Shown here: positions 3,037-64,000 of the stretch, one piece after another
Layout of the letters: every line of letters begins with the position of its first letter
Position numbering within the stretch: position 1 is the first letter of the stretch
Notes under the pieces: generated by a model
What the model saw: the letters and a program-made list of their open reading frames with translations, nothing else
What the model was told of the DNA's origin: nothing
Database searches by the model: none
Made by a program: the position numbers and the translations under genes
From: Alphaproteobacteria bacterium
GTDB taxonomy: Bacteria; Pseudomonadota; Alphaproteobacteria; UBA828
Direction: 5' to 3'
Length of the DNA: 64,000 nt
NCBI GenBank assembly: GCA_963422645.2
Contig: CAXXVO010000008.1
Location: 288,001 to 352,000, forward strand

Positions 3037-4434
3037 ATGAAGGCGTTGAACGCAATCAGGTTATCGGGTCGCGAGGTCCTGCCCTTGATCGAGGGCGGCA
3101 AGGGCATCGGCGTGACCAACGGCCTGAGCTCCGGCGCCTGGGCCGCCGCTGGCGGTGTCGGCACATTCTCCGGCGTCAATGCCGACTACTACGACGAGCA
3201 CGGCCGCGCAATTCCGCAGACCTACCGCGGCCGCACCCGCAAGGAGCGGCACGAGGAGCTGGTCGACTACGCGATCAGGGGCGGCATCGCCCAGGCGCGC
3301 ATCGCCTACGAGACTTCGGGCGGCGACGGGCGGCTCCACATGAACGTGCTGTGGGAGATGGCTGCCGCCGAGCGCATCCTCCACGGCATCCTCGACGCCA
3401 CGCGCGGCATCATTCATGGCGTGACCTGCGGCGCCGGCATGCCCTACCGCCTGGCCGAGGTGGCCGCACAGTACGATGTCCAGTATTACCCGATCATTTC
3501 GTCGGCGCGGGCCTTCCGCGCGCTCTGGAAGCGCGCCTACCATCGATTCTCTGACTGGATGGGCGGCGTCGTCTACGAGGACCCCTGGCGTGCCGGCGGC
3601 CATAACGGCCTCTCCAACAGCGAAGACCCCGAACAGCCCGAGCCCGCCTATCCGCGGGTCATGGCGCTGCGCCAGCAGATGCGCGAGTACGGCCTCGACG
3701 ACGTTCCGATCGTGATGGCGGGCGGGGTCTGGTACCTGCGCGACTGGGAGGACTGGATCGACAACCCCGAGCTCGGCCCTGTGGTGTTCCAGTTCGGCAC
3801 CCGCCCGCTGGTGACCGAGGAGAGCCCCATCTCCGAGCAGTGGAAGCGTAAGCTACTATGCATGAGGGAGGGGGACGTGAAGCTCAACCGCTTCAGCCCC
3901 ACCGGCTTCTACTCCTCGGCGGTGCGCAACCACTTCATCAGGGAGCTCGCCGAGCGCGAGCATCGGCAGGTCGCCTACACCGCAGAGCCCATCGGCGACC
4001 ATAACCAGATCTTCACGCCGGGGCCGCGCGGACGCTCTTTCTATCTGACCAAGGGCGATCTGGGGCGGACCGAGGCGTGGATGGACGAGGGCTTTAACGC
4101 CGTGTTGAAGACCCCCGACACCACGATCATCTTCGTCACGGACGAGAAGGCGCGCGAGATCAGGGCCGACCAGGCGGCCTGCATGGGCTGCCTCAGCGTC
4201 TGCCGCTTCAGCAACTGGGCGACCAACGAGCTGGGCTCGACCGGCAAGAAGACCGATCCCCGCAGCTACTGCATCCAGAAGACGCTGCAGGAGATCATCC
4301 ACGGCGAAGACATCGACGACCAGCTCATGTTCGCTGGCCACGCGGCCTTCCGGTTCGCGAACGATCCCTTCTACTCGAACCGCTTCATTCCCACCGTGCG
4401 CCAGCTGGTGGAGCGCCTGCTCACCGGCGACTGA
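3037..4434 (+). CDS. Nitronate monooxygenase / FabK-like flavin oxidoreductase
   Basis: LIEGGKGIG, CGAGMP, AGGHNGLS, MAGGVW, FQFGTR motifs; typical neighbour of pnp in alphaproteobacteria. Confidence 0.85.
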   Translation: MKALNAIRLSGREVLPLIEGGKGIGVTNGLSSGAWAAAGGVGTFSGVNADYYDEHGRAIPQTYRGRTRKERHEELVDYAIRGGIAQARIAYETSGGDGRLHMNVLWEMAAAERILHGILDATRGIIHGVTCGAGMPYRLAEVAAQYDVQYYPIISSARAFRALWKRAYHRFSDWMGGVVYEDPWRAGGHNGLSNSEDPEQPEPAYPRVMALRQQMREYGLDDVPIVMAGGVWYLRDWEDWIDNPELGPVVFQFGTRPLVTEESPISEQWKRKLLCMREGDVKLNRFSPTGFYSSAVRNHFIRELAEREHRQVAYTAEPIGDHNQIFTPGPRGRSFYLTKGDLGRTEAWMDEGFNAVLKTPDTTIIFVTDEKAREIRADQAACMGCLSVCRFSNWATNELGSTGKKTDPRSYCIQKTLQEIIHGEDIDDQLMFAGHAAFRFANDPFYSNRFIPTVRQLVERLLTGD

Positions 4435-4464
4435 CCGCCGCCGCCCCGCCTGCCGCCGTCTGCT

Positions 4465-5240
4465 TCACCGCTCCTTCACATAGGGAACGCCGCTCGCCTT
4501 GCCTTGGGCGGCACCGCCTTGCCCACGAAGCCTGCGAGCAGCAGCACGGTTAGCAGGTAGGGCAGCGCCTGGATTGCTTGCACGGGGATCACGCCGACGC
4601 CGGGGATATCCACGCCTTGCAGCCTGGCCTGCACGGCATCGGCGAAGGCGAAGAGGAAGCAGGCGAAGAGGGTCGGCACCGGGCGCCACTTGCCGAAGAT
4701 GAGCGCGGCGAGGGCGAGGTAGCCCATTCCTGCGCTCATGTCGCGCACGAAGAGCGCGTTCTGGGCGATCGAGAGCGACGTGCCGGCAACGCCGCAGAGG
4801 ATGCCGCAGACGATCATCGCCCGGTAGCGCATGCCGGCGACCGAGATGCCCGCCGTGTCCACCGCCTCCGGCGCCTCGCCGACCGCGCGAAGCCTCAGCC
4901 CGAAGCGGGTCTTGTAGATGAACCACGCCGCGAGCGGGACCATGCCGAGCGCGATATAGACGATCAGATTATGGCCGCTCGCCATCTCCGAATAGATCTG
5001 GCCGATGAAGGGCACGTCGCTCAGCCGGTCGGCGAAGGGGAAGTGAATCGGGCGGAAGCGCGCGCCATCCCCCACCAAGGGCGTATGCCCCCCCTGGCCG
5101 AACCAGGCGAGTGAGAGCACCGGCCCGAGCCCCGCCACCAGGATATTCAGCGCCATGCCCGAGACCACCTGATCGCCCCGGTGGGTGACGCAGGCGAAGG
5201 CGTGAACCATCGCGAGCGCGACCGAGGCGCCCACGCCGGC
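4465..5240 (-). pseudogene. ABC transporter permease (nucleoside/BMP-type), N-terminally truncated and frameshifted near its 3' end
   Basis: GDQVVSGMALN, TRFGLRLRAVGE, GMGYLALAALIFGKWRP motifs. Homology stops at the 5240/5241 junction. A 5-bp tandem duplication GCCTT (4496-4505) moves the natural tail ASGVPYVKER* into another frame. Confidence 0.8.
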
Positions 5241-5345
5241 TGTAGCCGGCCGGAAGTCTTTGCGAATCGCGGCCGGAAGTCTTTGCGAATGGCCTGGAAA
5301 ATCGGCTGGTTTTCGGGGCTGAACCGGGCTGGAAAAACCGGCCTG
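5241..5345. mobile_element. Orphan transposon end (TGT terminus plus tandem transposase-binding-like repeats)
   Basis: TGT at 5241 exactly at the permease break; identical 21-mers CGGCCGGAAGTCTTTGCGAAT at 5247-5267 and 5270-5290; further CTGGAAAA..CGGC repeats near 5294 and 5329. Confidence 0.65.
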
Positions 5346-5412
5346 TGCATGGGCCATGAAGGAGCGCTGCGCGGGGGGTTCAGGGCCCGTGCACGGGCGG
5401 TGCGTGGGGGTT

Positions 5413-5997
5413 TCAGGCGCGGTCGGGACCGGGGCGGGCGCCGGGGCGGCACGGGCGTTCGAGTTCGGCCTTCCACCATTCGGGGTCTTCGACGGCGCGT
5501 TCTGCGGCGTCGTATCCGTCGTGACCGGTCCATCTTCCGGGGTCGGCGTCGGCGTACCACCGGCCTGCGCCGCGGTGTCGCTCGAGGGCGTCGTCGATGC
5601 GGGCGACCTGGTCCGCCGGGCGTCCCCGGCAGAAGCGCTCGAAGAAGGCGTTGAGGCGGCATCGGGGGCAGCGTCCGCAGGGCTCTGCCGCAACGGTGCA
5701 TCGCCAGGTGAGCGCCTCCAGCCCGGGCGGGAGCAGGGCCTGGAGCATGAAGCGCCCGGCGACGGGTCCGAAGGGGGCGTCCCGCGACGGCGGCCACTGC
5801 GCGCCGTCCTCCCAGCCGGGGAAGAAGGGGAGTTCCGTGGGGACGGCGGTGCGCGCGCGGTAGGCCGGATGCCAGTACATGCGGTGCATGTCGTCGGCGG
5901 TGTCCCACGAGGTGATGCCGGGCATCACCCGGTCGGCGCGGTGGCGCTCGGCCTCGTCGGCGTGGGTTGCGTACCGGTCGATGCGGATTGATGCCAC
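5413..5997 (-). CDS. Hypothetical protein with a QueC-like Cys motif (probable fragment)
   Basis: LTWRC-x6-CGRCPRC resembles the QueC TWSCY-xn-CGxCxxC zinc site; no SGGxDS PP-loop present. Confidence 0.45.
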   Translation of the reverse strand: MASIRIDRYATHADEAERHRADRVMPGITSWDTADDMHRMYWHPAYRARTAVPTELPFFPGWEDGAQWPPSRDAPFGPVAGRFMLQALLPPGLEALTWRCTVAAEPCGRCPRCRLNAFFERFCRGRPADQVARIDDALERHRGAGRWYADADPGRWTGHDGYDAAERAVEDPEWWKAELERPCRPGARPGPDRA

Positions 5998-6066
5998 GTT
6001 CGAGGAAGCGATACAGGCGCTCGTGCGGTCCGTGCGCGTCCGCTAAATTCCGCGTCGGAAGCCTCG

Positions 6067-6291
6067 ATGATGAAAGGCAGGTGCACCTTCACTCAAACTG
6101 AAGCCCATGCCATCCGGGCCATGATCGCACGACTCAGAGATTCAGACTCAAGCGAACAGAAGCGGATACGTAACAAGCTCCGGAGCGAGCATGGATTCTG
6201 GATCACTGATTTCGGTCGCAGGGGAACAAATGGCTTCACGGTCGCCGACTTCGATGCGTTGATCGAGAGTGGACGAATCCACATACATTGA
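6067..6291 (+). CDS. Small hypothetical protein (74 aa)
   Basis: Protein-like composition, lower GC than the core genes, co-oriented with the next gene. Confidence 0.55.
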   Translation: MMKGRCTFTQTEAHAIRAMIARLRDSDSSEQKRIRNKLRSEHGFWITDFGRRGTNGFTVADFDALIESGRIHIH

Positions 6292-58371: not shown

Positions 58372-58738
58372 ATGAGCGACGACACTTACCAGGACATCGG
58401 CTACGGCGCGATGGAGATCGGCTTCGGCGAGCGACCCGGCATTCTCGTGGTCGATTTCCAGACCGGCTTCACCCAACCCCAATTTCCCCTCGGCAACTGC
58501 CCCCTGGTGCATCGCGCCGTGGAGAACACGGCGCGGGTGCTCGAGTCCGCCCGCGCGGCGCGTGTGCCGGTCGCCAACTGCTACACCGCCTATCATTCCG
58601 AGCGCGACATGCCCTACTGGAAGATCGCACCGGTGCGCGAGCACTTCTTCGAGGGCGACCCTTGCGCCGAGATGGAGCCCCGGACCTCCGACCCCGACTA
58701 TGACTACATCCTGCGCAAGTCGGGCCCTTCGATCTTCT
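58372..58738 (+). pseudogene. Isochorismatase-family cysteine hydrolase, truncated by IS66
   Basis: GFGERPGILVVDFQ...LRKSGPSIF, then breaks at GTAACTGCCCAGG; catalytic Cys region absent. Confidence 0.85.
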
Positions 58739-60570
58739 GTAACTGCCCAGGTTCTTGCTGTGAAAATTCTCTGGGATTCGGCACAACGCTACCCACGCGA
58801 CGCCCGTGTGCTCCTCTGGGGTCGCCGGGTTTCACAGCTCACGATGCCCCTCTTGCGGACTGCGACCGGTAAGCTACCCCGATGTGGCCCGAAGTCCGCC
58901 CGCGCGACGGGCACCGATTTTCATTCTATGGGGTGGTCCAGCACGGCGTCGACCATGATCGTTTATGAGAATGGCTCCGCTGTTGGAGAACCCGTGCCAG
59001 GTGAGCTTACGCGCACTTGACGGTGGCGATGAGCCGATCCGATGGGCTGGTCAGGGCTTCGATGATATTCCAGCCCTGCTTTCTGGCGGTGGTGATGACG
59101 CTGCGCAGGATGGCGAAGTTCTCGGCCCCCTGCGCGGACCGGAAGCCCCCGGAGATCTTCTGGCGCAGCTTCATCATCCGAAGGTCGCGCTCGGCCTCGT
59201 TGTTCGTGAACCCGACCTCGAGGTCGATCAGGAACCGGAGCACCGCGCATTTGTGGTCGCGCAGCCTCAAGGCCAGATTGTGACCGATCCTTCGCTTCCG
59301 GCGCTTCTTCCTCTTGCCAGGCGAGAACGGTGGTTGGCTCTCGTGAAAGGCCAGCGCATCGGCGATGATCTCGTCGTATCGGCGCTCGATCAGCGCCACA
59401 AGCCTCGCCGGAACGGCGATATCCTTGTCCAGCGCGATGCGGGCGGCGCGATTGGCTCGGCGCAGGAGCTGCTGCATCCGCCGGGCCCAAGCCTCCCCTT
59501 CGATGTCCACCAGCGCCTGCAACTCCCGCAGGTGATGGGCGTTGCACAGGCCGTGCTCCACCCCTTCCATCGCGAAGTACGGCTTCCAGTGATCGTGCAC
59601 GACGATGCCGGAGACACCCGAGAGCAGGGCGCCGCGCTTGCCGCTGACCCGGTACGCCGCCAGCAGCGGCGTGCAGATCACATGAAGCCACTGCGTCTGA
59701 CCGCCGATCCGCAAGCCGGTCTCGTCCATGTGTTTCACCCGCGCCGTGCCCGCCGCCAGGTCCTGTATGTGCAAGGCCGCGTCCCGCAGCCGCTCGGCCG
59801 CCCTCTCGCTCATCGTCGCCAACGTCGCAGCCGTCACCGGCGCGCCGAAGAGCTCGGCCATCACCTGCGACAGCCGATCCTCCGGCAGGAAGTGAGCGTG
59901 CTGAAGGTAGACCGCCACCCCGGCAATGCGCGGGCCGTACTGCACCGGCGCCGACACCCCGTCGGGGAACGCCGCCCGGGTCACCGTCCCGCAATGCCCG
60001 CAGCACTTGGCATGCGCCCGGTGCTCGGTCACCTCCAGGGGGCTCGGCTCGGGCAGATCGAACACCTGGCGGGCGACGGGCGTTCCCGCCCTGGCCGCGT
60101 CCGAAAGCGGCGAACCGCATCCCTTGCAGGAAGCCGGGACGTGATCCTTCACCCGATCCGGGTGATCGGCGCGGCGCAGCGTCTTGCCCTTGTGGCCGGG
60201 CTGGCCACCGGGCTTGCGGCCCGATTTGCCGCGCAGGCTTCGGGTTCGCCGCTTCGAATTCGGCTTCCTCAGCCCATCGCTCGAAGGCGGCTTGCCGCTG
60301 TTGAGGCCGAGACGGCGCTCCAACTCCTCGATGCGCTCGACGAGACGCGCGACTTGCTCTTCCAGCCGCGCGTTCTGCTGCCGAAGCCAGGCATTTTCCT
60401 CCCGAAGCCGGGCGTTCTCCTCCTCCAGGCGGGCGATCTTCTGCGCGGGCGTTTCGGGCGCTGCTCCCGTCGAAGGGCCGCGCGGCGACTCGGGATTGCT
60501 CATGTCGTTGTTGAGTCATTTCCCGAAATTCCCGTCAAGCCCTTTCCACCAACTCCGAACGAGAAACGCC
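58739..60570 (-). mobile_element. IS66-family element 1 (single transposase; second TIR missing)
   Basis: Terminus GTAACTGCCCAGGT at 58739; element 2 abuts 67 bp upstream of the transposase ATG. Confidence 0.8.
59007..60503 (-). CDS. IS66 transposase
   Basis: KPPSSDG, GGQPGHKG, HMDETG, CNAHHLREL, FTNNEAERDLR. Confidence 0.95.
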   Translation of the reverse strand: MSNPESPRGPSTGAAPETPAQKIARLEEENARLREENAWLRQQNARLEEQVARLVERIEELERRLGLNSGKPPSSDGLRKPNSKRRTRSLRGKSGRKPGGQPGHKGKTLRRADHPDRVKDHVPASCKGCGSPLSDAARAGTPVARQVFDLPEPSPLEVTEHRAHAKCCGHCGTVTRAAFPDGVSAPVQYGPRIAGVAVYLQHAHFLPEDRLSQVMAELFGAPVTAATLATMSERAAERLRDAALHIQDLAAGTARVKHMDETGLRIGGQTQWLHVICTPLLAAYRVSGKRGALLSGVSGIVVHDHWKPYFAMEGVEHGLCNAHHLRELQALVDIEGEAWARRMQQLLRRANRAARIALDKDIAVPARLVALIERRYDEIIADALAFHESQPPFSPGKRKKRRKRRIGHNLALRLRDHKCAVLRFLIDLEVGFTNNEAERDLRMMKLRQKISGGFRSAQGAENFAILRSVITTARKQGWNIIEALTSPSDRLIATVKCA

Positions 60571-60735
60571 GTAACTGCCCAGGTACCCCCTCTCTCTTAT
60601 GGAACAAGCCAGTTCCTTTTGCGTCAACGCCCCCACGCCGCGGGGGTGCCTACTCTCTTGAGCGCGAGAGGATGATGAACGCCGCGTCGCGAACAAGATG
60701 AGAGGACAGCGATACTCAGGATGAGCCGGAGAAGT

Positions 60736-62274
60736 TCAGGAGCGCAGTATAGGGATCAGCTGCATCGGTTCCGGGTGCGCCAGGATTTGCAGGATGTTCC
60801 AGCCTTGCTTTCGAGCGGTGACGATGACGCTGCGCATTCCGGCGAAGTTGCAGGCGCCTTGCAGGGAGCGGAAGCCGCCTGAGATCTTCTCATGCACTTT
60901 GTTCATACGGATGTCACGCTCCGCCTCGTTATTCGTGAACGGCGTGCGCAGGTCGGTGAGGAAGCGCAGGCAGCCCTCCTTATGCTTTTGAAGGCGGCGC
61001 GCGAGGTTGTGGCCGATGCGGCGTTTCTTTCGCCCTCGCTTTGCGATCTGGAGCGGCGGTTGGGCCTCATGGAAGGCGATGGCTTCTTCGAGGATACGGT
61101 CCCATGCCCTTGAGATGCGGGCCACCAGGGAGGCGGGGACTTGACGGTCTTTCTCACGGGCGAAGCGGGCGGCCCTGCGCGCGCGCTGAAGCAGGCGGTG
61201 CATGCTCGCCGCCCATTCCTCCTTCTCGATGTCGATCAGGGCCTGGAGTTCGCGCAGGTGATGTGCGTTGCAGGCGCCGTGGCGGACGCCCTTGATGGTG
61301 AAGTAGGGGGCGAAGTCGTCGTGGACGAGGATGCCTTTCAGGTTCTTTTCGACATCGCCGCGTCCCTCGCCGATGCGCAGGACGGTGAGCAACGGGGTGC
61401 ACAGCACATGGAGCCAGCGGGTACGGGCGGCGATACGCAGGCCGGTCTCGTCGAGGTGCTTGACCGGCGCCTGCGTGCGGATCAGATCGGCGACATGGTC
61501 GAGGAAGCCCTCGAAGCGCTGCGCTGTGCGCCGGCCCATGGCGGCGATCGTGGCAGTGGAGATGGACACCGCGAAGATGTCGCTCATGAGTTCGGCCAGA
61601 CGCTTCTCGGGCACGAACTGGGCGTACAGCAGGTAACTCACCCAAGCGGTGATGCGAGGGCCGTACTGGACCGGGGCGGTGACGCCCGGCGGGAAGGCGG
61701 CTCGTGTCAGCGTGCCGCATGCGCCGCAGAGGCAGCGATGGGCGCGGTGTTCGGTGACCTCGAGAGGCTGCGGCTCGGGTACGTCGAAGACCTGCCGACA
61801 GGCGGGCGCGCCTTGCCGGTCGGCGTCCGAGAGCTCGACGCCACAGCCGGAACAGGTGGAGGGGTGGTGATCGACGACACGGTCCGGGCTGTCGCTCCGC
61901 GCGAGGGTGGTTCCCTTGTGGCCGGGCTGGCCGCCACTGGGCCCGCCGGACTTTCCGCGCTGGCTTTGGGTGCGCCTCTGGGCTCCGCTTTTCTTCTTGA
62001 GCCCGTCGCTGGCGGGGGGCTTGCTGCTTGTGGTGCTGTTGAGGGCCGCGCTGCGCTCGAGTTCGGCGATGCGCTCGCGCAGGGCCGCGTTCTCCTGCTC
62101 GAGTGCGGCATTTTCCCGGGCGAGCGCGGTGGCTGATCGCAGCAGCCCCTGCCCCCATTCCCGGACGGCAACGACGACAGTGGTTGCGAGGGATGATGGC
62201 TCGAGAAGCTCCTTCAGGCAGCAGAAGGCCTCGTTACGGGCGGCGAGGTCTTCGTGCCAGTGCGACACCGTCAC
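60736..62274 (-). CDS. IS66 transposase
   Basis: SSKPPASDG, HLDETG, CNAHHLREL, FTNNEAERDIR; GTG start overlapping the upstream stop (GTGA) is inferred. Confidence 0.93.
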   Translation of the reverse strand: MTVSHWHEDLAARNEAFCCLKELLEPSSLATTVVVAVREWGQGLLRSATALARENAALEQENAALRERIAELERSAALNSTTSSKPPASDGLKKKSGAQRRTQSQRGKSGGPSGGQPGHKGTTLARSDSPDRVVDHHPSTCSGCGVELSDADRQGAPACRQVFDVPEPQPLEVTEHRAHRCLCGACGTLTRAAFPPGVTAPVQYGPRITAWVSYLLYAQFVPEKRLAELMSDIFAVSISTATIAAMGRRTAQRFEGFLDHVADLIRTQAPVKHLDETGLRIAARTRWLHVLCTPLLTVLRIGEGRGDVEKNLKGILVHDDFAPYFTIKGVRHGACNAHHLRELQALIDIEKEEWAASMHRLLQRARRAARFAREKDRQVPASLVARISRAWDRILEEAIAFHEAQPPLQIAKRGRKKRRIGHNLARRLQKHKEGCLRFLTDLRTPFTNNEAERDIRMNKVHEKISGGFRSLQGACNFAGMRSVIVTARKQGWNILQILAHPEPMQLIPILRS

Positions 62275-62936
62275 GTGTCTTCGGCCTCGACGGCCATCAT
62301 GGCGGCGAGCACGGCGAGGCGTTCGCCCGGCGGCAAGGCCTGGTAGCGCCGGCCCCAGTTGGCTGCCTTGCGCTTGATGCGCTGGCGGTCGGTGAAGTTC
62401 CGGCCTGCGTGGCTGGCCCAATGCATCCGGTCGGGGGCGTAGTTGAACCAGACGACCTCGGTTCGCACCAGACCCTGGGTCGTGACCTGCAGCGCCAGCC
62501 GGCGCCATCCCGCCAGCACCTCGTCATAGAGCGCCGACGGATGGCCCGAGATCATGACCTGGCAGGGCAGAGCCTTGAGCAGCGCGAGAAGCGCGACGTG
62601 GCCGGCCTCCTCGTACTCGAAGCGGTAGCGCTGCGCCGAGCGGCGGGTCGCGTGCAGATAGGGCGGATCGCTGTAAACCAGCTCCGGGCCCAGGAACGGG
62701 AACGAGGCCAGGAAGTCATGGGCACAGCCGTGAACCAGATCGACCGGGTAGTCGCAGACGAAGGCCTCGAGCGCCTGCGCATCGCGGTCGATGCCGATCG
62801 AACGCACGGCCGGCGGCTTGCGCTTCGTCAGCGCCCCGCCCCCAAGGTGGCTTTCGATGTAGACGGAGTGCGGCGGCATCAGCGCAATCAGCGCTTGGCA
62901 CAGACCTGCTGTCGCCTTCGAGCCGAAATACCCCAT
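62271..62936 (-). CDS. Dam-like (D12 class) N6-adenine DNA methyltransferase
   Basis: YFGSK, YIESHLGGGA (SAM-binding motif I), YSDPPY (motif IV), VMISG. Confidence 0.88.
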   Translation of the reverse strand: MGYFGSKATAGLCQALIALMPPHSVYIESHLGGGALTKRKPPAVRSIGIDRDAQALEAFVCDYPVDLVHGCAHDFLASFPFLGPELVYSDPPYLHATRRSAQRYRFEYEEAGHVALLALLKALPCQVMISGHPSALYDEVLAGWRRLALQVTTQGLVRTEVVWFNYAPDRMHWASHAGRNFTDRQRIKRKAANWGRRYQALPPGERLAVLAAMMAVEAEDT

Positions 62937-63128
62937 GGACCGCTCCCGTCACGCGAGAGAGCAGTCCATAGTCCCGCAACTCTATGAGGTCAAGAACCAA
63001 TCGCGGTGGCAGAACCAGGCCGCGGCCGCCGCCATAATCACCGTCCTCAACTCAGGATTGGGGTACCTGGGTAGTTACCATATATTTAGTCAGTTAGGCG
63101 ATGAACTTCATCCGATGAGACAATATCA

Positions 63129-63613
63129 ATGTCCTCCGTAATCGTCGAACGGATCGAGTTGCTGGCGATCGGGCCCGATGGCGAGAGGGTGACGTGGTCG
63201 TCGCACCTCGGGCCCATGTACGAGGCGCTGATCGTGGCGCGGCTCTTCCTCTCCAATGGCGTGGAGGCCATTGCCGGTACGACGACCTATACGGAACACG
63301 AGTTCGACAAGACTGCGTACTCTGCTGCCAACCTGATGGCGCCATTCGTGCTCGGGCGAGACGCATTCGACACCCACGCTGCTTACAAAGACATGCGAAA
63401 GCGCTACGTCCCTCTTGGGCATGCGGCGCTTTCCCTCTTCGACATTGCCCTGCACGACGGCAAAGCGAAGTCTGAGAACCTGCCGATATATCGAATGCTG
63501 GGCGCCGCCCGGCACGAAATCCCCGCCTATGCGTCGAGCCCGTTATTGTCTACAGATCAAGCCTATATCGAGTACTGCCGTCAAGTACTTGAGCTGGGCT
63601 ATCGGGCGAACCG
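63129..63613 (+). pseudogene. Mandelate racemase / enolase superfamily enzyme, truncated by IS1595
   Basis: SLFDIALHDGKAK...LPIYRMLG...IPAYAS...GYRA, then breaks before the catalytic barrel. Confidence 0.85.
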
Positions 63614-64000
63614 CTTATGCACATGGCTCCGGTCGCGAGAGTTTGCCACCAGATGTTGAGGTTGAGGTTAGGGCGGGAGAACGGGTAGAATGTTGCCTAT
63701 ACGTTCCTGCCGACGGAGCCACCACATGAAACAGGTCGCCGACAGCCTCCTCGCCTTCCAGCACATGTTCCCGGACGATGACGCCTGCGCCGCCTGGCTG
63801 ATCGAAATGCGCTGGCCGGACGGCTTCGTCTGTCCCGCGTGCGGCCATGAAAAGGGATGGGCGCTGCGCAGAAAAGCACACACCTTCGAGTGCGCCGGCT
63901 GCCGCCGGCAGACCTCGGTGACGGCCGGGACGATCCTGCACGCCAGCAAGCTGCCGCTCACCGTCTGGTTCTGGGCCGCCTACCTGATGGCGACCCACTC
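63614..64000 (+). mobile_element. IS1595 family element (partial)
   Basis: Probable left end CTTATGCACATGGCTCCGG followed by the transposase; exact boundary uncertain. Confidence 0.75.
63726..64000 (+). CDS. IS1595 transposase, N-terminal zinc ribbon (partial, not in the ORF track)
   Basis: Hand translation: MKQVADSLLAFQHMFPDDDACAAWLIEMRWPDGFVCPACG...FECAGCRRQTSVTAGTILHASKLPLTVWFWAAYLM. Confidence 0.92.
   Translation, partial: MKQVADSLLAFQHMFPDDDACAAWLIEMRWPDGFVCPACGHEKGWALRRKAHTFECAGCRRQTSVTAGTILHASKLPLTVWFWAAYLMATH

Follow-up and report, generated by a model that had tools for sequence, protein, structure and literature searches.

An IS66-family insertion sequence with a Dam-like, Upf31-family gene in a putative portable promoter-gene cassette

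Insertion sequences (IS) are usually described as a transposase together with its ends. Transposition repressors encoded by such elements include InsA of IS1, OrfA of IS911 and Inh of Tn5, and the host methylase Dam regulates IS10 and IS50, tying transposase expression to replication. Here we describe an IS66-family insertion sequence from an alphaproteobacterial genome, located in a 64,000-nucleotide stretch of contig CAXXVO010000008.1 (the window), in which the gene for a 221-amino-acid (221-aa) Dam-like protein lies directly upstream of the transposase gene. The protein is a homologue of the plasmid protein Upf31, and the gene appears to travel together with its own promoter between unrelated transposase families. 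Our favoured reading, which we hold to be moderately probable, is that this unit is a portable autorepressor cassette limiting transposase expression.

Upf31 is the only studied homologue, and one paper (Elg et al., Mol Biol Evol 2025, PMC11997246) describes it as follows. GATC methylation by Upf31 was not seen in a restriction test, and SMRT sequencing (single-molecule real-time) in methylase-free E. coli gave no kinetic signal. The upf31 promoter, which contains an operator-like set of CAGCATCG inverted repeats, yielded 4.76 XylE units without and 0.09 units with full-length hybrid Upf31, a case of autorepression. A C-terminal dimerisation domain was predicted, and KorB was the proposed partner. 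Homologues were searched there by BLASTN in PLSDB only, and the main text contains neither 'transposase' nor 'insertion sequence'. Judged by titles and abstracts, we found no published description of a methylase-carrying IS66 group or of the cassette in the literature.

To count copies, the 2508-bp element was compared by BLASTN with the 5.9-Mb genome to which the window belongs, at ≥90% identity. The search returned 105 high-scoring segment pairs covering 147 kb, or 2.5% of the genome. The full span of the element (1-2508) was present in 36 of the 105, at 99.7-100% identity, and a perfect 8-bp direct repeat flanked 22 of these 36 full-length copies, which makes the element boundaries exact. 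The target duplications had 37.5% GC, against 67% for the genome. These results show that 60571-63078 is a discrete, highly active IS66-family insertion sequence. They also assign the inverted repeat at 63060 to this same element, as an earlier note, made from the letters of the window alone, had supposed. The features of the element are as follows (evidence in brackets).

60571..63078, both genes on the minus strand: complete IS66-family insertion sequence, 2508 bp (full-length copies in its own genome and 8-bp target duplications)
60571..60589, no strand: terminal inverted repeat at the transposase end, GTAACTGCCCAGGTACCCC (inverted-repeat pairing)
63060..63078, no strand: terminal inverted repeat at the cassette end, reverse complement GTAACTACCCAGGTACCCC (inverted-repeat pairing)
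60736..62274, minus strand: IS66-family DDE transposase, 512 aa from GTG at 62274 (NF033517, Pfam)
62271..62274, minus strand: GTGA stop/start overlap (read from the sequence)
62271..62936, minus strand: gene for the 221-aa Upf31-family protein (AlphaFold model, structural match to Dam, Upf31 homology)
62943..62947, minus strand: GGGAG of Shine-Dalgarno type, 6 nt upstream of the start ATG for the 221-aa protein (sequence reading)
62965..62970, minus strand: putative -10 box TATGGA, 17 nt after the -35 box and overlapping the right arm of the repeat (sequence reading)
62967..62986, no strand: operator-like inverted repeat CATAG-N10-CTATG between the -35 and -10 boxes (genome pattern search, related loci)
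62988..62993, minus strand: putative -35 box TTGACC of the cassette promoter (alignments of related upstream regions)

The 221-aa gene was carried by all 36 full-length copies, and its open reading frame (ORF) was intact in 34 of them. The transposase ORF was intact in 32 (26 of 512 aa and 6 of 513 aa). When relatives were included, matches were found in 7 of 30 relatives' genomes, with 1 to 23 in each, against 92 in the element's own genome in the same comparison. This distribution fits recent, patchy bursts of IS spread. The window copy itself has no target duplication, its flanks being GAAACGCC (60563-60570) and CATATATT (63079-63086). Since two other copies, at C3:226134 and C16:2108, carry this left-flank sequence GAAACGCC on their right side, the missing duplication points to recombination between IS copies after insertion as the simplest reading.

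Two further elements of this genome bear on the studied IS. One is a sister IS of 2434 bp (for example G000:C8:733460-735893), with a Dam-like protein at 85-87% identity. Of its 14 full copies, 11 have 8-bp duplications, and it shows the same GTGA overlap and the same operator. The other is a 2512-bp element (for example G000:C18:4988-7499, L097) with ends CAGACTTCCTGA... and a frameshifted Transposase_29 (PF21804) gene preceded by helix-turn-helix domains, present in 78 near-full copies. It is found inside the studied IS repeatedly, each time no more than 440 nt in from the transposase end (positions 176-438), and several of these insertions lie at an identical position.

The terminal inverted repeats of the studied IS are 19 nt long and 18 of the 19 positions are complementary. 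Their pattern occurred twice in the window, both times as an end of the element, with 0.01 occurrences expected from shuffles. Between them the element is filled by two minus-strand ORFs, one for the 221-aa protein with a DPPY motif (62936..62271) and one for the IS66-family transposase (62274..60736); no third ORF with a family match was found within 60571-63078. The earlier note had read the locus as a two-gene IS66-type element with near-perfect 19-bp ends, a coupled Dam-like gene immediately before the transposase and no restriction enzyme, and the analysis bears out this anatomy.

We take the IS66 family to be defined by terminal repeats that start with 5'-GTAA and by an 8-bp target duplication. 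The studied element has ends that begin GTAACT, the 8-bp duplications and a TnpC-type DDE transposase. The transposase matched NF033517 at 3.6e-86 (289.7 bits, cutoff 180) and contained the Pfam domains DDE_Tnp_IS66 (6.3e-41), DUF6444 and, weakly, zf-IS66. The tnpA and tnpB genes of canonical IS66 are missing, as the upstream ORF matched no tnpA or tnpB model. With two ORFs only and no such match, the element belongs to the IS66 subgroup that lacks tnpA and tnpB; the single-ORF subgroup is presumably the ISBst12 group of ISfinder. From residue 51 onwards the transposase was 60% identical to that of a neighbouring IS without the methyltransferase-like gene, in which the N-terminal ~50 aa have no equivalent. 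The nearest plasmid-borne transposases were generic 'IS66 family transposase' genes at ≤48% identity.

Relatives of the 221-aa protein were examined in two samples, namely the best 80 of 142 relatives in species-representative genomes and the best 80 metagenome loci; both consist of best matches, many from few genomes, and are biased, so that the counts are not frequencies. An IS66 transposase lay within 600 nt downstream on the same strand in 72 of the 80 genome loci, while 6 had an IS701-family transposase as partner (DDE_5, 4e-27; NF049999, 4.5e-92) and 2 had no recognisable partner. The metagenome partners were 65 gamma-type IS66, 1 alpha-like IS66 and 2 other IS66 lineages, 1 IS701, 2 IS1634 (NF033559, 8.1e-74 and 1e-38) and 1 non-IS; a further 3 had no family match and 5 were too short. 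Nucleotide homology between the studied IS and the IS701-type IS (L071, L076) was confined to element positions 86-809, a block reaching from the first base of the -35 hexamer through the codon that ends the 221-aa gene. The Dam-like protein of gamma-type IS66 elements was 68-70% identical and their transposase 28-33%. In the protein tree the IS-borne proteins formed a single clade (support 100/98) that left out three plasmid homologues, and the IS701-linked proteins fell within the alpha group (99/97). Taken together, these sequence comparisons indicate that the promoter and the 221-aa-type gene form a portable cassette, which is found upstream of IS66, IS701 and IS1634 transposases.

The coupling of the two genes varied between these groups. 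In the studied IS, the four bases GTGA end the 221-aa ORF and at the same time contain a GTG in frame with the transposase ORF, and an in-frame GTGA overlap was present in 59 of the 80 genome loci. Gamma-type loci (n = 10) had gaps of 10-36 nt between gene and transposase, and the IS701-type gap was ~68 nt. The gene order and operon-like layout are therefore general, and the 4-nt overlap is an alpha-type trait.

Several settings of the cassette were recorded besides. The IS701-family IS that carries it (L071, L072 and L075-L078, ~3446-6226 in each) is ~2776 bp long, with perfect 19-nt ends, always lies in a CTNAG site and occurs in several copies per genome; a 176-aa ORF lies on the opposite strand upstream of its cassette. 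On one metagenome contig (L151, 3001-6369), the cassette with its operator precedes no transposase; what comes next is an ORF resembling an Ogg-HhH glycosylase and then a fusion of PfkB with nucleoside 2-deoxyribosyltransferase. One Thalassobaculaceae genome has the cassette alone in two copies (L069 and L074, 3865-4692; 828 bp, 94% identical), with unrelated downstream sequence and no transposase recognised. A candidate on Sphingobium plasmids was rejected: ISSp1 (IS1380 family) stands beside a 51%-identical homologue, and its own repeats bracket the transposase only, so the methylase-like gene there is not IS-borne.

We next consider the promoter region of the cassette. Alignments of upstream regions showed CTTGAC(A), CATAG, ten variable bases and CTATG(CTG) in alpha-, gamma- and IS701-type cassettes as well as in a Xanthomonas plasmid homologue. 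Of 161 related loci, 155 had TTGAC or TTTAC with TAG-N10-CTA 8-11 nt further on, and 3 of the 6 loci without the pattern were contigs cut off upstream. Among 89 unique sites, arm position 5 was complementary in 80, position 4 in 66 and position 2 in 71; a change on both sides (CGTAG...CTACG) was seen in 3, and all ten spacer positions varied. CATAG-N10-CTATG occurred 59 times in the element's own genome, always in copies of the studied IS, where base composition would predict ~4 occurrences. The operator motif is present once per element. Searches for further operator copies at the IS ends gave none; the ATAG-like words near gamma-type transposase ends are coding sequence and were not counted. 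No motif common to the operator and the IS ends was found.

The ends themselves had attracted the earlier note because each contains the palindrome GGTACC. This is so in the window element, but GGTACC as a functional target falls away, since it is not conserved in the ends of relatives. In the sister IS, as in the alpha-type relatives, it is confined to a single end, although the sister IS has reached 14 full copies, with target duplications at 11; the gamma-type relatives have none. The shorter GTAC fared no better as a shared target: both ends carry it in this element and in the IS701-type IS, a single end does in other alpha-type elements, and it is absent from the first 70 nt of gamma-type ends (GTAACTACTCACCC), where the protein is 68-70% identical. 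The general idea of a self-regulating element survives, with the conserved cis site moved from the terminal repeats to the promoter and operator of the cassette.

The 221-aa protein carries DPPY at residues 90-93 and ESHLGGGA at 28-35. Pfam searches at E 0.01 returned no family for it, PF02086 included, and TIGR00571 (dam) reached 21.1 bits against a cutoff of 114.85, over residues 85-150 only. Its close relatives P0031 and P0084 pass PF02086 with 27.8-28.8 bits (cutoff 22). A single-sequence search against PDB sequences gave no match. With a profile of 44 homologues, DpnM was reached at 3e-9 and E. coli Dam at 6.7e-6, the matches falling into one stretch with the N-terminal motifs and a second, separate one with the DPPY half. 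The AlphaFold (AF2) model was confident (pLDDT 91.3, pTM 0.85), and its best Foldseek matches were Dam, Mcbe1 and DpnM. VIA-align superposed model residues 1-167 on residues 8-270 of E. coli Dam (2g1p_B) with Z 18.2 and a root-mean-square deviation of 2.4 Å over 149 residues; Z was 18.1 for T4 Dam, 17.3 for DpnM and 17.3 for Mcbe1, and ≤14.4 for unrelated methyltransferases. About 100 residues of Dam, its target-recognition domain, had no counterpart in the model, and a C-terminal helix pair (181-220) is predicted as an addition to the Dam core. Set against the D12/Dam class, the protein has DPPY and the glycine motif for binding S-adenosylmethionine (SAM), stays below the family cutoff, and shows no target-recognition domain between the SAM-binding half and the DPPY half. 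By the model, therefore, the catalytic core is Dam-like and Dam's target-recognition domain is absent.

The family is large. A word-indexed search in 90%-identity clusters gave 3704 proteins at E ≤0.001, of which the best 120 were all ≥69% identical, and an exhaustive search gave 5554 cluster representatives, 553 of them at E ≤1e-30. Homologues were also found in 196 annotated plasmid records, 134 of them conjugative, including upf31.0 of IncP-1 plasmids such as pB3; all were <60% identical, and no plasmid record contained a relative at ≥60% identity.

Upf31 of pBP136 aligned with the 221-aa protein over residues 1-218 at 45% identity (E 2e-67), including DPPY and the C-terminal part. The homology is thus full-length and takes in the C-terminal domain. 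The gene of the studied IS also has its own promoter with repeats of the CAGCATCG type. It does not share the location in the IncP-1beta backbone, with KorB as proposed partner, and instead lies inside a chromosomal IS. The upf31 promoter aligned with the cassette promoter, one CAGCATCG repeat standing at the place of the cassette's CA(N)CATAG: upf31 has TTGACAGCATCG where the IS cassettes have CA(N)CATAG-N10-CTATG(N)TG after TTGACA.

The sequences thus show the mobility and anatomy of the element, the conservation of its cassette and the homology to Upf31; co-transcription, repression and dimerisation we infer, in the following manner. One mRNA for both genes would start from a single promoter just inside one end, with re-initiation at the GTGA overlap giving the transposase. 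By binding the operator that overlaps the -35/-10 region, the Upf31-like protein would turn the promoter off, probably as a dimer held by its two C-terminal helices, as the model in the Upf31 paper and our own reasoning suggest. Repression would act in cis and in trans on all copies, so that the supply of transposase would be low and would fall as copy number rises. Movement is carried out by the DDE transposase, with duplication of 8 bp of AT-rich target. If the conserved DPPY pocket does methylate adenine, its target would probably be the operator only.

A number of observations weigh against this reading. The cited repression data concern a hybrid R751/pBP136 protein in E. coli that is 45% identical to the 221-aa protein, and the second repeat arm is degenerate in pBP136. 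In the operator alignment, arm position 3 was complementary in only 17 of the 89 unique sites and arm position 1 in 48, and the inner arm positions 6-8 were set by the search rule TAG-N10-CTA. A consensus promoter scan called no promoter in the window copy, as TATGGA fails the rule of the scan; at locus L082 the same scan called TTGACA-17-TATGCT at the homologous place, the sole site in that element. The right arm overlaps the -10 box, and part of the conservation of the repeat may reflect promoter function alone. Finally, across 44 sequences reaching down to 39% identity, D90, P91, P92 and G32 were invariant and Y93, E28 and G34 nearly so, and the protein is far more conserved than the transposases. 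This conservation of the pocket and slow protein evolution would be better explained by a working enzyme than by a plain repressor, and they leave room for narrowly targeted methylation.

Three other readings deserve to be weighed against the autorepressor. The earlier note had proposed a self-methylating IS that might regulate its own ends, shield itself from restriction or alter the host methylome. In this vein, an active orphan N6-adenine methyltransferase with a short motif, for which the IS would be the carrier and which would alter the methylome or protect incoming DNA, would account for the DPPY and ESHLGGGA motifs conserved across the family, for a fold closest to Dam-class enzymes and for a wider family that sits mostly on conjugative plasmids (the 134 of 196 records above); anti-restriction methylases are common on such plasmids. 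Yet the model lacks the domain with which Dam recognises its target, GGTACC and GTAC are not conserved at the ends, and neither the place directly before a transposase nor a conserved operator-like promoter would be needed by a free passenger gene. For the homologue Upf31, too, the experiments cited (PMC11997246) found neither a SMRT signal in methylase-free E. coli nor protection at GATC. We regard this reading as unlikely, and the claim as unsupported so far. A cofactor of transposition that replaces TnpA and TnpB, contacting the IS66 transposase or the IS ends, is suggested by the position of the 221-aa gene, which is that of tnpA/tnpB, and by its translational coupling to the transposase in alpha-type elements. 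The same cassette, however, also stands before IS701 and IS1634 transposases and before IS66 transposases with only 29% identity to this one, which argues against a specific protein-protein fit, and each element has a single operator motif, with none at the ends; this reading seems to us very improbable.

There is some chance, though a small one, that the protein is repressor and enzyme at once, methylating adenine only in its own operator or -10 box, so that the methylation state sets promoter activity, repressor binding and a link to replication. The invariant catalytic pocket and the unusual conservation of the protein fit such a role, as do the adenines in the operator arms, the right one of which overlaps the -10 box. 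The negative SMRT result would be compatible with it as well: compared with the sequence, the cloning primers in the methods of the Upf31 paper place the start of the SMRT construct downstream of the upf31 promoter repeats, and we infer that a long target confined to the operator would have escaped detection. Against it, E. coli has, by our estimate, many single CAGCATCG octamers, at which an enzyme acting on half-sites should have shown itself. A bolder version, which we offer tentatively and would not expect to hold, is that a Dam-fold protein, having lost the domain for general target recognition, has turned into an operator-specific repressor-methylase, a plug-in module acquired independently by at least three unrelated transposase families (IS66, IS701 and IS1634). 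Its methyl mark on its own -10 box and operator would then limit the transposase by copy number and release it only on newly replicated, hemimethylated DNA.

Unrelated transposase families have in common, here, what behaves as an exchangeable module: a regulator gene equipped with a promoter and an operator of its own. The cassette is abundant and accompanies large IS expansions. The puzzling plasmid protein Upf31 is now tied to a much larger family of mobile elements. If the autorepressor reading is true, the cassette would be a simple, testable case of copy-number control of transposition, and it would explain why thousands of such genes bear an automatic label of 'DNA adenine methylase' without evidence.

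The sequence around the studied IS is crowded with nested insertion sequences and broken host genes. A further IS66-family element that lacks the Dam-like gene occupies 58739-60570 and encodes a 498-aa transposase (59007-60503, minus strand). Its end shares the first 14 nt of the studied IS (GTAACTGCCCAGGT), and an isochorismatase-family gene (Pfam PF00857 on 58372-58737) is interrupted by it at 58738. The studied IS is inserted into this neighbour and takes the place of its other end; further copies of the studied IS are found within this neighbour element at a different site (duplication GTCATTTC at C9:244240). On the far side, 63129-63659 holds a 176-aa fragment with the N-terminal domain of mandelate racemase/muconate lactonizing enzyme, and 63726-64000 holds the start of an IS1595-type transposase, with a zinc-ribbon domain.

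Compared with the single-ORF IS66 subgroup, the studied element shares the TnpC-type transposase with DUF6444, zf-IS66 and DDE_Tnp_IS66, the absence of tnpA and tnpB, the GTAA-starting ends and the 8-bp duplications; it differs in the extra upstream gene with its own promoter, joined to the transposase through GTGA. With the D12-class enzymes E. coli Dam, T4 Dam and DpnM, the 221-aa protein shares DPPY, the N-terminal motifs and, by the model, the fold of the catalytic core, whereas their target-recognition domain (~100 residues in Dam) is absent from it and a C-terminal helical pair is added. The resemblance to Upf31 (upf31.0 of the IncP-1beta plasmids pBP136 and pB3) extends over the length class, the DPPY and GGG motifs and the basic two-helix C-terminal domain, as well as the promoter, in which TTGACA precedes a CAGCAT(C/A)G repeat standing at the matching place. 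Unlike the IS-borne proteins, which form a separate clade and always stand before a transposase, Upf31 is encoded in the plasmid backbone between the trb genes and parA and is not transposon-borne. With IS1 InsA, IS911 OrfA, Tn5 Inh and the Dam control of IS10 and IS50, the cassette would have in common a brake on transposase expression, encoded by the element or based on methylation, at a promoter inside the IS end. In the present case, however, the brake would be a protein of Dam fold that brings its own promoter and can be exchanged between transposase families that are unrelated.

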